A DNA stretch of 64,000 nucleotides from a virus (lineage: Duplodnaviria > Heunggongvirae > Uroviricota > Caudoviricetes), in the IMG/VR virus record IMGVR_UViG_3300013132_000019; one strand, written 5' to 3'. The notes below the pieces were generated by a model. That model did not search any database. It was not told the DNA's origin and saw only the letters and a list, made by a program, of their open reading frames with translations. How positions within the stretch are numbered: the stretch's first letter is position 1; each line of letters starts with the position of its first letter. This document shows positions 3,255 through 4,702 of the stretch, piece after piece. The position numbers were made by a program, and so were the translations under genes.

Positions 3255-3453
3255 TTTTTCTGGATTTAAACCATGATGTAATTTGAATTATAGTTCTTCT
3301 TGTTGAGAATATTGGCCAAAAAATAATATTAAAAACTGGTTGTAATGGATTATCATATTTCGTTTTAAAATATGATACATCAACGATAACCCATACCACC
3401 CCTTTGATAAGGTAATATAAACCAAAACCGACTATAACCCAAAGATTCATCAT
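3217..3453 (-). CDS. Small membrane protein
   Basis: Hydrophobic N-terminus and IIFWPIF segment. Confidence 0.6.
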   Translation of the reverse strand: MMNLWVIVGFGLYYLIKGVVWVIVDVSYFKTKYDNPLQPVFNIIFWPIFSTRRTIIQITSWFKSRKNAKSKSEIKGRS

Positions 3454-3502
3454 AATAATAAATATACAAATAAATATACAAAAAAATAATCAAAAAAAAA
3501 AG

Positions 3503-3574
3503 TGACACTAAAAAGATTCGAACTTTTACACTCAATTTAGAAGATTGAGATGCTTCCATTTACATCATAGTGCC
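3503..3574 (-). tRNA. tRNA-Arg(TCT)
   Basis: GGCACTA/TAGTGTC acceptor, TCAAT-CTTCTAA-ATTGA anticodon arm, AAAAG-TTCGAAT-CTTTT T arm; no encoded CCA. Confidence 0.9.
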
Positions 3575-3581
3575 AGAAATG

Positions 3582-3661
3582 TGACGACAGAGGGATTCGA
3601 ACCCACATCCTCCGCTCCGATTACGATTACGTAGTTCGTAGCTACGCTCGGCTATGTCGCC
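3582..3661 (-). tRNA. Non-canonical tRNA-Arg(ACG)-like RNA; no D arm at the usual position
   Basis: GGCGACA/TGTCGTC acceptor, CGTAG-CTACGAA-CTACG arm after an 8-nt connector, GTGGG-TTCGAAT-CCCTC T arm. Confidence 0.7.
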
Positions 3662-3676
3662 ATTTTAATTTTAACG

Positions 3677-3746
3677 TTGCGAGTATCGGAATTGAACCGA
3701 TTTGGCTTCCCTTATGAGAGGAGGCTCTTTACCATTAAGACTCGCA
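3677..3746 (-). tRNA. tRNA with CAT anticodon (Met or lysidine-type Ile2), short D region
   Basis: TGCGAGT/ACTCGCA acceptor, TCCT-CTCATAA-GGGA, ATCGG-TTCAATT-CCGAT. Confidence 0.8.
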
Positions 3747-3753
3747 ATGATTG

Positions 3754-3825
3754 CTCTGGTGGTGAATTACGATATCACGACCACTTGTTTAACAGACAAG
3801 TGCTCTGCCTCTGAGCTACACCAGA
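3754..3825 (-). tRNA. tRNA-Asn(GTT)
   Basis: TCTGGTG/CACCAGA acceptor, GCTC/GAGC D stem, CTTGT-CTGTTAA-ACAAG; atypical T loop (ATCG instead of TTCG). Confidence 0.85.
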
Positions 3826-3839
3826 ATTTTAATTTAATG

Positions 3840-3929
3840 TAGTGCGGATTGGATTCGAACCAATATTTGATGTTATCTCAACATGCCATTACGAGTATAG
3901 AAGATATAAGCTTCCATCGGTACCGCACC
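3840..3929 (-). tRNA. Non-canonical tRNA-Ile(TAT)-like RNA; no D arm at the usual position
   Basis: GGTGCGG/CCGCACT acceptor, 7-nt connector, GGAAG-CTTATAT-CTTCT arm, long insert, ATTGG-TTCGAAT-CCAAT T arm. Confidence 0.65.
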
Positions 3930-4034
3930 AAGAAAGATTTTTACCCTAGAGAATCTTGTAACTCTGTCTGACTACTAACTAGTTTTCATCAGATATCAAA
4001 AGTGTGCTTCAAAGAGAGGCATTGATGGTTGATG

Positions 4035-4125
4035 TCGACCTGATTGGATTCGAACCAATGTTTGATGTTATCTCAAGATACCAGCTACAGTTCTCAAACT
4101 TATCAGGTTTGGCTGCTACAGGTCG
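4035..4125 (-). tRNA. Non-canonical tRNA-Ile(GAT)-like RNA; no D arm at the usual position
   Basis: CGACCTG/CAGGTCG acceptor plus discriminator A, 7-nt connector, CAAAC-CTGATAA-GTTTG arm, 35-nt insert, ATTGG-TTCGAAT-CCAAT T arm. Confidence 0.7.
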
Positions 4126-4131
4126 AATTTA

Positions 4132-4223
4132 TGGCGGAGACGAAGAGAGTCCAACTCTTACATCAGCTCATCACTGACCTAGCCGTTTTCAAGACGGTGT
4201 ACCTCTGTCAACTGGGCGCCTCC
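4132..4223 (-). tRNA. tRNA-Ser(TGA)
   Basis: GGAGGCG/CGTCTCC acceptor, G discriminator, encoded CCA, CCGT-CTTGAAA-ACGG, long variable arm. Confidence 0.85.
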
Positions 4224-4240
4224 ATTATATAATTTTATCG

Positions 4241-4328
4241 CGGTGAGGAAGGGAGTTGAACCCTTACGAGACTGGTTACTCCTAACTACCTAGCAAATAG
4301 CGGCCACCACCAATTGGCTTGCCTCACC
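4241..4328 (-). tRNA. tRNA-Ser(GCT)
   Basis: GGTGAGG/CCTCACC acceptor, G discriminator, CTAT-TTGCTAG-GTAG, long variable arm, AAGGG-TTCAACT-CCCTT. Confidence 0.85.
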
Positions 4329-4340
4329 ATAAATTATTTG

Positions 4341-4412
4341 CACAGACATAAGGCCTCGAACCCTAACCAATTGATTTGGAGTCAATTATGCTTCCAATTA
4401 CACCATGTCTGT
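4341..4412 (-). tRNA. tRNA-Trp(CCA)
   Basis: ACAGACA/TGTCTGT acceptor, ATTGA-CTCCAAA-TCAAT, TAGGG-TTCGAGG-CCTTA. Confidence 0.9.
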
Positions 4413-4463
4413 GTGTTTAATATTAATATGTCAAAGAACATATTATCCGAAGATAATATTCTG

Positions 4464-4550
4464 GGTCTGGTATCGGACTCGAACCGATTGGGGTATTTCT
4501 ACCACGGGGTCACAACCCGTTCCGCTAACCTGTTACGGGCTAACCAGACC
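4464..4550 (-). tRNA. tRNA-His(GTG) with an extra variable arm
   Basis: 8-bp acceptor GGTCTGGT/ACCAGACC (G-1:C73-like), ACGGG-TTGTGAC-CCCGT, variable hairpin GGTA-GAAA-TACC, ATCGG-TTCGAGT-CCGAT. Confidence 0.8.
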
Positions 4551-4554
4551 ATAT

Positions 4555-4589
4555 AAAAACAAAAAACCCGACTGTTTAAGGTCGGGTTC
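4555..4589 (-). terminator. Intrinsic terminator between the leader peptide and the tRNA array (attenuator)
   Basis: Minus strand AACCCGAC-CTTAAACA-GTCGGGTT followed by TTTTGTTTTT. Confidence 0.85.
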
Positions 4590-4615
4590 TTCATTTCTTA
4601 GTTTTATAATTTAAA

Positions 4616-4702
4616 TCAACTAAAGTTATGAGCATAACCGACCATGGTGGCGCTACTGCGTCTCCAATTAATCGAATTCATATGTATGCTCATAGTTTTC
4701 AT
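4616..4702 (-). CDS. Putative attenuator leader peptide MKTMSIHMNSINWRRSSATMVGYAHNFS (28 aa)
   Basis: Translated manually. Lies between a promoter and a terminator; contains GGTCGGTT complementary to the terminator 5' arm; codons match the downstream tRNAs. Confidence 0.75.
   Translation of the reverse strand: MKTMSIHMNSINWRRSSATMVGYAHNFS

Follow-up and report, generated by a model that had tools for sequence, protein, structure and literature searches.

The window analysed here is a 64,000-nucleotide (nt) stretch of the caudoviricete virus record IMGVR_UViG_3300013132_000019 from IMG/VR, and it carries three transfer RNA (tRNA)-like genes, RNA1, RNA2 and RNA3, in which the D-loop bases lie on the 3' side of the anticodon arm instead of the 5' side. 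It is quite likely that these genes encode functional elongator tRNAs, Arg-ACG, Ile-UAU and Ile-GAU, respectively, and that they belong to a large, mainly phage-borne family with a permuted wiring of the D and anticodon elements; the pairing patterns of 200 family members suggest that the L-shaped core is probably kept on this permuted backbone.

Organization of the three genes

All three genes lie on the minus strand, at 3582-3661, 3840-3929 and 4035-4125. Read 5' to 3', RNA1 (3661 to 3582, 80 nt) consists of GGCGACA, TA, GCCGAG, the arm CGTAG-CTACGAA-CTACG, a 23-nt insert, the arm GTGGG-TTCGAAT-CCCTC, TGTCGTC and a final A; RNA2 (3929 to 3840, 90 nt) of GGTGCGG, TA, CCGAT, GGAAG-CTTATAT-CTTCT, a 34-nt insert, ATTGG-TTCGAAT-CCAAT, CCGCACT and A; and RNA3 (4125 to 4035, 91 nt) of CGACCTG, TA, GCAGC, CAAAC-CTGATAA-GTTTG, a 35-nt insert, ATTGG-TTCGAAT-CCAAT, CAGGTCG and A. 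The acceptor stem is complete in each gene (7 of 7 pairs, some of them G.U in RNA1 and RNA2), the T arm has a stem of 5 base pairs (bp) and the 7-nt loop TTCGAAT, with one U.U mismatch in the stem of RNA1, and the anticodon arm has a 5-bp stem and a 7-nt loop with U33 and a purine at position 37 (CT-ACG-AA, CT-TAT-AT and CT-GAT-AA). The connector between TA and the anticodon stem measures only 5-6 nt, and no local D hairpin is found at positions 10-25, where a cloverleaf has its D arm. The motifs AATCGG (RNA1), AATGG (RNA2) and AGCTGG (RNA3), which resemble a D-loop, lie instead in the insert, and the core tRNA signature of U8, A14, R15:Y48 and G18G19 (R, purine; Y, pyrimidine) can be assigned in all three genes at the level of the sequence. 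The components are located as follows.

3582-3661, minus: RNA1, putative tRNA-Arg(ACG); acceptor 3655-3661/3583-3589, discriminator A at 3582, without encoded CCA
3648-3650, minus: RNA1, 5' strand CGA of the D-stem-like helix (connector positions -4 to -2), pairing with TCG at 3624-3626
3630-3646, minus: RNA1 anticodon arm CGTAG-CTACGAA-CTACG, anticodon ACG at 3637-3639
3616-3626, minus: RNA1, TCG (3624-3626), D-loop-like T-A-A-T-C-G-G (3617-3623) and A20-like A (3616)
3607, minus: RNA1, Y48-like U, partner of the R15-like A at 3621
3590-3606, minus: RNA1 T arm GTGGG-TTCGAAT-CCCTC
3840-3929, minus: RNA2, putative tRNA-Ile(UAU); acceptor 3923-3929/3841-3847, discriminator A at 3840
3917-3919, minus: RNA2, 5' strand CGA of the D-stem-like helix, pairing with TCG at 3892-3894
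3899-3915, minus: RNA2 anticodon arm GGAAG-CTTATAT-CTTCT, anticodon TAT at 3906-3908
3886-3894, minus: RNA2, TCG (3892-3894) and D-loop-like TAATGG (3886-3891); Y48-like U at 3865
3867-3881, minus: RNA2, optional hairpin TTGA-GATAACA-TCAA at the variable-arm position
3848-3864, minus: RNA2 T arm ATTGG-TTCGAAT-CCAAT
4035-4125, minus: RNA3, putative tRNA-Ile(GAU); acceptor 4119-4125/4036-4042, discriminator A at 4035
4113-4115, minus: RNA3, 5' strand CAG of the D-stem-like helix, pairing with CTG at 4088-4090
4095-4111, minus: RNA3 anticodon arm CAAAC-CTGATAA-GTTTG, anticodon GAT at 4102-4104
4081-4090, minus: RNA3, CTG (4088-4090) and D-loop-like TAGCTGG (4081-4087); Y48-like C at 4060
4062-4076, minus: RNA3, optional hairpin TTGA-GATAACA-TCAA
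4043-4059, minus: RNA3 T arm ATTGG-TTCGAAT-CCAAT

A preliminary description of this DNA had given each gene a 7-bp acceptor, a TTCGAAT T arm and a discriminator A, had placed the anticodon arm, with the loops cited above, only 7-8 nt after the acceptor, and had noted a 23-35-nt insert with an A-R-Y-(Y)-G-G motif and a 34-nt block shared by RNA2 and RNA3 with a single mismatch. The minus-strand reading is in agreement with all of these points, and for the anticodon arm the homologs add compensatory changes. The single base that differs in the shared block (3848-3881 versus 4043-4076) is the very position that covaries with R15, so that it is explained by a 15:48-type pair, U accompanying R15=A in RNA2 and C accompanying R15=G in RNA3.

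The hairpin carried by RNA2 and RNA3 at the variable-arm position is absent from the TAT homologs of 80-81 nt, and other subfamilies have different hairpins at that site, which change compensatorily (e.g., GGGTA..TACC versus GGGCA..TGCC). This TTGA-GATAACA-TCAA hairpin was also considered as the true anticodon arm and was rejected: it would place A at 33 and C at 37, it is missing from the shorter homologs, and its stem is weakened in the relative L004. With regard to expression, a contig from a marine RNA library spans 3560-3748 and differs from RNA1 in two places, one in a loop and one that turns a G-C pair of the anticodon stem into G.U, although DNA carry-over is possible and makes this weak evidence; RNA-library runs gave cover over parts of the array, and none was seen over RNA2 or RNA3.

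Homologs and extent of the family

Relatives were collected by an exact-pattern scan, then by using the gene for the CCA-adding enzyme as a lead to distant phages, and then by four more pattern scans of IMG/VR; a positional parser kept those sequences with TA at positions 8-9 and a connector of 5-6 nt. The scans yielded more than 220 IMG/VR loci, from which 200 distinct members were parsed. As a sequence pattern, what RNA1-3 have in common is far beyond chance: the covariance model R1, built from relatives and searched through five phage records, gave scores of 104 bits for RNA2 and 96 bits for RNA3. The anticodons of the 200 members are TCT (68), GAT (35), ACG (34), TAT (26), TCG (23), CCT (6), CAT (4), GCG (3) and TCA (1), nearly all of them for arginine or isoleucine. 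The single TCA member (L210:440-527, plus strand), whose anticodon reads UGA, has the Arg-type A20, a discriminator A and a GAGATAACATC hairpin of the RNA2/RNA3 type, and might have arisen from an Arg tRNA that came to read UGA.

The close relative L001 matches the whole array, and in it the acceptor stem of the RNA3 counterpart shows compensatory changes. In the more distant L004 (57% protein identity), the RNA3 ortholog has the anticodon stem CCAAC/GTTGG where the window has CAAAC/GTTTG, together with A and U at the R15/Y48-like pair where RNA3 has G and C, and the RNA2 ortholog has CCAAG/CTTGG where the window has GGAAG/CTTCT; other RNA2 homologs have GCAAG/CTTGT and GGATG/CATCT. The Arg-ACG ortholog in L028 has TATAG/CTATA against CGTAG/CTACG in RNA1, with two compensatory pairs. 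The changes in L004 and L028 indicate that the first hairpin is a conserved, covarying anticodon arm.

Outside the viral records, 120 pattern matches were found in bacterial genomes, only 10 of which parsed as family members, and 5 of the 10 copies in bacterial genomes and metagenome-assembled genomes, including that of Brucella haematophila, encode CCA directly after the discriminator. The re-threaded Arg tRNAs in bacterial assemblies include L288:6519-6598 (plus strand), L276, L277, L322, L358, L371, L377 and L384; the isolate Brucella haematophila CCUG 38531 is among the sources, and several of these copies have an encoded CCA. The cultured Salmonella phage Felix O1 (NC_005282) carries a member at 25951-26029, an Arg-TCT type with the helix CTC/GAG, an A:U 15:48-type pair, A20 and an encoded CCA; it is unannotated in RefSeq and overlaps the start of an HNH gene call. 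A BLAST search of two members against GenBank phages gave no match for one and a single unannotated huge-phage match for the other, a weak negative given the short queries.

Decay could be suspected for genes that standard finders miss and that stand in arrays of a kind in which HNH endonuclease genes occur, as in Felix O1, and RNA1-3 might on these grounds be tRNA pseudogenes or rearrangement scars. Nevertheless, the conservation of 200 distinct sequences, spread over more than 200 contigs and a cultured phage, and the compensatory changes in four helices and one tertiary pair contradict this explanation, to which we give almost no weight.

Covariation of the displaced D elements

The helix that joins the insert to the connector was defined by position only, as the pairing of connector positions -4 to -2 (numbered back from the anticodon stem) with the three nucleotides before the invariant T-A. 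Among the 200 members, 192 have C-G and 7 have U-A or A-U as pair 1, whereas pair 2 takes all four Watson-Crick forms (G-C 118, C-G 58, A-U 17, U-A 6) and is thus formed in 199/200; with shuffled partners the paired fraction at this position is 0.50 and at most 0.585 in 1000 shuffles, and it falls to 0.28-0.41 when the register is shifted by one. Pair 3 is formed in 113/200. Within the window, RNA1 and RNA2 both combine CGA/TCG with an A:U pair of the 15:48 type, and RNA3 combines CAG/CTG with G:C, so that both inner helix pairs of RNA3 are altered on both sides with respect to the other two genes.

An unbiased recount was made on a MAFFT alignment of 113 sequences built without knowledge of the structure. 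The columns of the middle pair (13:38) contain GC in 73 sequences, CG in 30, AU in 7 and UA in 1, and those of the R15:Y48-type pair (42:68) contain AU in 92 and GC in 19. Pairing reaches 98.7% in the acceptor columns, where each of the 7 pairs has changed on both sides, and 98.2% in those of the T stem; over the whole structure 95.8% of cells are paired, versus 63% after shuffling and about 40% when slid. Among homologs, compensatory changes thus affect the T stem as well as the acceptor and anticodon stems.

The bases beyond the helix also behave as those of a D-loop. The insert ends, just before the T stem, in a base that covaries with the purine following T-A (A:U 156, G:C 43, one exception, i.e., 199/200), both combinations occur inside every major anticodon family, and in canonical tRNA the 15:48 Levitt pair covaries as R15:Y48. 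The base after GG is A in 130/134 Arg types and U in 53/61 Ile types, and the discriminator is A in 61/61 Ile types; A20 is the major identity element for arginyl-tRNA synthetase (ArgRS), and A73 is an element for isoleucyl-tRNA synthetase (IleRS). The 15:48-type covariation, together with the amino-acid-specific base at position 20, suggests that the relocated U-A-R-Y-(Y)-G-G-N string behaves as positions 13-20 of a normal tRNA, and the pairing of the insert with the connector suggests that the D-stem encloses the anticodon arm, with the D-loop after it.

In the preliminary description, the genes had been viewed as arm-swapped tRNAs that keep the D/T elbow, and in two of them the D-loop motif was taken to be closed by a local 3-bp stem. 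The first view is supported by the anticodon-stem covariation, by the R15:Y48-type pair and by the distribution of A20 in Arg and U in Ile types. The local stems (CGT/GCG and CGT/ATG) do exist in the window, but they are not conserved, and the bases on the 5' side of the motif pair instead with the upstream connector, which the covariation analysis of the homologs identified as the partner of the displaced stem. Findings that had been named beforehand as fatal to the idea were also looked for, such as a lack of conservation of the CT-NNN-A loop or of the displaced GG, or a conventional cloverleaf using the downstream loop: loop and GG are conserved, and no conserved cloverleaf of that kind was found among the homologs. 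Two other pairings were tried and rejected. Local hairpins around the D-loop-like motif (CGT/GCG, CGT/ATG, ATC/GAT, TTC/GAA, CTC/GAG) have all three pairs in only 12-16 of 200 members at the corresponding offsets and are broken in L019 and L028, and a pairing of the connector with Y-G-G (helix X) does not discriminate, since connectors are C-rich and GG is invariant, as expected of G18G19.

These data also bear on the reading of RNA1-3 as D-armless tRNAs of the mitochondrial type with a long variable region, in which the insert would be no substitute for a D arm and the core would be unlike the canonical one. The missing hairpin between acceptor and anticodon arm agrees with such a reading, as do the Rfam alignment, which drops the D arm and assigns the insert to the variable region, and the shortness of the D-stem-like helix, whose third pair is often absent. 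A plain variable region, however, requires neither a pairing with the connector in all four Watson-Crick types nor an invariant U-A...GG, 15:48-type covariation in 199/200 and an A20 restricted to Arg types; on this evidence, we regard the D-armless reading as improbable.

Behaviour of tRNA finders and folding programs

The expectation that standard finders would miss or misassign these genes proved correct, as ARAGORN called only RNA1 of the three (3581-3661), as Arg(acg), in a different, non-conserved fold that places the anticodon oddly, at position 30. With the Rfam model RF00005 (cut-off 29 bits), RNA1 scored 32 bits in an alignment with the D arm deleted and the insert as variable region, and RNA2 and RNA3 gave no tRNA match, RNA2 scoring 20.5 bits to tRNA-Sec. 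Intron, mitochondrial and low-threshold options of ARAGORN gave no consistent alternative, and relaxed settings proposed Thr(cgt) for 3839-3929. Over the whole family, ARAGORN found 15 of 200 members, with the right anticodon in 4. Given that finders miss most members, phage tRNA repertoires and the analyses of codon supply based on them would have systematic gaps for Arg and Ile, the rare codons AGA and AUA included.

The RNA1 call and the relaxed Thr(cgt) proposal are what speaks for conventional cloverleafs that use a downstream loop as anticodon, that is, the ARAGORN fold of RNA1 and the CGT or GTA loops of RNA2 and RNA3. That fold has mismatches in both the D stem and the anticodon stem of RNA1, and in L028 the latter drops to 3 bp and its 'anticodon' turns into ATA, whereas ACG is retained in the first hairpin, whose stem has two compensatory pairs; moreover, the GTA triplet is invariant across the Arg and Ile families and has no flanking stem. 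Conventional cloverleafs are thus extremely unlikely.

Proposed structure and function

For the permuted architecture, the gene order would be a normal 5' acceptor strand with U8-A9; a connector of 5-6 nt whose positions -4 to -2 would act as the 3' strand of the D-stem (positions 23-25); the anticodon arm and a linker of 3-5 nt; a triplet that would supply the 5' strand of the D-stem (positions 10-12); the bases of the D-loop, U, A14, R15, Y16, (Y17), G18, G19 and N20; a tail that ends in Y48, with or without a variable-arm-like hairpin; and a normal T arm and 3' acceptor strand. In canonical numbering, the segments would follow one another as 22-25, 26, anticodon arm, 44-47, 10-13, 14-20/21 and 48, an internal circular permutation of the D/anticodon domain. 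With this strand order, the secondary structure would be a three-way junction with a long D-stem-plus-anticodon arm and not a cloverleaf. Each of the three new joins (9-22, 47-10 and 21-48) would link residues that are adjacent in space in the known L-shape, so U8:A14, R15:Y48 and the contacts of G18G19 with the T loop may still form and the L shape may be kept. The RNAs would be processed, receive CCA from a phage or host enzyme, be charged by the ArgRS and IleRS of the host and be used on the ribosome, where, in an AT-rich phage, they would serve ATA, ATT/ATC and CGN codons.

Several points weigh against this interpretation. The third helix pair is unpaired in 43% of members, so that the helix is often 2 bp and a mismatch; a possible competing conformer in which connector CC pairs with GG reaches 3/3 pairs in 131/200 members when the best of the registers is taken; and RNA2 has C instead of U after GG. 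Minimum free energy folding of single sequences did not recover the D-stem-like helix for RNA1 or RNA3, and the corresponding Z-scores are weak (-0.8 to -1.5), single-sequence folds being uninformative here. Ascertainment also plays a part: the parser required the anticodon hairpin and TA-R..GG, and two scan patterns fixed the tail TGAAAAY, so these features are partly present by construction, although the helix partners, the 15:48 pair, N20 and the discriminator were constrained neither by the scan patterns nor by the parser. Finally, a mature RNA, CCA addition, aminoacylation and decoding are predictions from indirect signs, for charging and decoding A20 and A73 that track the anticodon, CCA encoded in relatives and the matching codons of a leader open reading frame, and the three-dimensional equivalence to the canonical core is drawn from covariation.

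A role outside translation is another explanation, in which the RNAs would be tRNA mimics or decoys, either baits for tRNA-targeting nucleases or modification enzymes or regulators of a leader-peptide switch. The non-canonical architecture is compatible with this, as is the presence nearby of a CCA-adding enzyme and a kinase-like protein, and the loop of the extra hairpin in RNA2 and RNA3 contains GAUAA, like an Ile anticodon loop. Against a decoy function stand synthetase identity elements that track the anticodon (A20 with Arg, A73 with Ile), anticodon loops that retain U33 and purine 37 and copies with an encoded CCA; the window, in addition, has no canonical Ile tRNA despite heavy use of ATA and ATT, and a leader open reading frame (ORF) uses the very codons of RNA1-3. 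A decoy function therefore seems rather remote compared with service as elongator tRNAs.

As to its origin, the wiring of these putative elongator tRNAs may be a frozen accident of a single phage tRNA lineage in which switches of the anticodon carried it between Arg and Ile, or it may be an adaptation. A tentative adaptive view, which we consider doubtful, is that the wiring keeps the contacts with ArgRS or IleRS, EF-Tu and the ribosome and makes the RNA a poor substrate for host enzymes that read the backbone path of the D arm and anticodon stem, such as tRNA-cleaving defence nucleases and toxins; the Ile types would then offer an additional bait in their optional GAUAA-loop hairpin, and the tRNA-repair and CCA genes near the array would form part of the same counter-defence package. 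The escape from tRNases and the decoy role put forward in the preliminary description are likewise speculative.

The tRNA array, its leader and neighbouring genes

The window has 33% G+C, nearly all of its genes lie on the minus strand, and among its phage functions are a large terminase and an SbcC-like nuclease; near-identical DNA is present in lake, lagoon and other aquatic metagenomes. The tRNA array extends over about 3500-4550 on the minus strand. ARAGORN calls six genes in it, and four genes reach the threshold of the Rfam tRNA model; in all, the array comprises ten tRNAs, among them RNA1-3 with the anticodons ACG, TAT and GAT. No canonical tRNA-Ile was detected in the window by ARAGORN, though ATA and ATT are heavily used; ATA makes up 42.8% of Ile codons in the 24 largest ORFs of the window, and AGA 59% of Arg codons in its large ORFs.

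Upstream of the array, a leader ORF at 4616-4693 (minus strand) encodes a peptide beginning MSIHMNSINWRRSS, which reads in full MSIHMNSINWRRSSATMVGYAHNFS up to the stop. Its codons 2-14 are AGC ATA CAT ATG AAT TCG ATT AAT TGG AGA CGC AGT AGC and include the CGC, ATA and ATT that had been pointed out at the outset; given the anticodons ACG, TAT and GAT, the array's ten tRNAs account for every one of these codons, which call for exactly those ten, with ATA assigned to RNA2, ATT to RNA3 and CGC to RNA1. Just before tRNA-His, at about 4556-4590, there is a GC hairpin with a U run after it; terminator-type Rfam look-alikes are also found there, and the leader ORF, hairpin and U run together (4556-4693) look like a leader-peptide attenuator.

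Other genes of the array depart from the usual in different ways. At 3677-3746 (minus strand) there is a 70-nt tRNA-like gene with the loop CTCATAA and the anticodon CAT (Met or Ile2), which has a 7-bp acceptor stem, the T loop TTCAATT, a weak D region and an imperfect anticodon stem; it was missed by both ARAGORN and Rfam and is kept in L001 with one loop change. A Ser(UGA)-like gene at 4130-4228 (minus strand), with the loop CTTGAAA, a long variable hairpin, the atypical T loop TTGGACT and an encoded CCA, was missed by ARAGORN, whereas its ortholog at the same place in L001 is a normal, detected tRNA-Ser(tga). The 87-nt tRNA-His(GTG) at 4463-4549 (minus strand) has G-1 and a long variable-arm hairpin, GGTAGAAATACC, unusual for His. 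The Trp(CCA) tRNA of the window is swapped in close relatives for a different, longer Trp-like gene at the same position (L001, about 3330-3410, minus strand; RNA-library run X19, across window positions 4343-4411), which looks like cassette-style turnover within the array. In relatives, a long variable arm also occurs in Ile(GAT) tRNAs whose D arm is normal (L021:187-271 and L024:2165-2249).

The array is flanked by three genes with tRNA- or RNA-related assignments.

2013-2915, minus: kinase-like ATPase with polynucleotide-kinase matches
6359-7537, minus: tRNA nucleotidyltransferase (CCA-adding enzyme), about 2 kb from the array
15747-17189, minus: 'RNA-binding protein', phrog_850

In Felix O1, the same RNA-binding protein gene is found immediately ahead of the tRNA array of that phage. 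The window further encodes a transfer-messenger RNA (tmRNA) at 11225-11596 (minus strand; Rfam, 58.6 bits), and the relative L004 has a tmRNA too. At 61165-62787 (plus strand) lies a big ORF resembling HNH/homing endonucleases (phrog_559, E 1e-167), on the strand opposite to all other large ORFs.

Comparison with known systems

Canonical Arg and Ile tRNAs (class I, RF00005) share with this family the sizes of the acceptor, T and anticodon arms, the TTCGAAT loop, U33, A37, U8-A9, the string A14-R15-Y-Y-G18-G19-N20, the 15:48 covariation, A20 in Arg and A73 in Ile types. They differ in that the family has no D hairpin at 10-25, its D-stem strands flank the anticodon arm and its D-loop leads into the T arm, which gives a three-way instead of a four-way junction; of RNA1-3, only RNA1 reaches the Rfam threshold. 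The D-armless tRNAs of metazoan mitochondria, such as mt-tRNA-Ser(AGY), have in common with the family a short connector between acceptor and anticodon arm and the lack of a D hairpin there; they are organellar, with short variable regions and lost elbow contacts, whereas the phage family retains the D-loop bases with GG, the T loop and the 15:48-type pair, the D-loop bases being moved 3'. Class II tRNAs (Leu, Ser and bacterial Tyr) likewise have a long stretch between anticodon and T arm, and RNA2 and RNA3 carry a hairpin at that site. The class II variable arm is nevertheless self-contained and accompanied by a normal D arm, whereas in the family the D hairpin is absent, the first part of the insert provides a D-stem strand, paired with the connector, and the D-loop, and the hairpin is optional.

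Permutation as such has a precedent in Cyanidioschyzon merolae, where Soma et al. in 2007 reportedly described circularly permuted tRNA genes whose processing restores a normal cloverleaf. The permuted order of segments is common to both cases; the phage genes have normal ends and an internal permutation, which the mature RNA would retain. Allo-tRNAs, natural non-canonical tRNAs known from metagenomes and phages, whose acceptor branches are of the 8/4 or 9/3 type (PMC5389517; review PMC7609411), alter helix lengths inside the cloverleaf, whereas in this family helix lengths are normal and the connectivity is changed. The open literature searched, which includes the allo-tRNA paper (PMC5389517) and the review of non-canonical tRNAs (PMC7609411) and leaves subscription journals mostly outside, describes no such architecture.

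The cloverleaf is regarded as near-universal outside organelles, a view that a large natural family keeping the core contacts with another threading of the backbone would contradict, if the interpretation is true; were these contacts kept, the L-shape would be the selected object and the topology of the secondary structure would be free to change. The family would also offer new scaffolds for the engineering of orthogonal tRNAs and a natural test of which enzymes read the connectivity of a tRNA rather than its shape, and the member in Felix O1, a cultured phage, makes these points directly testable.

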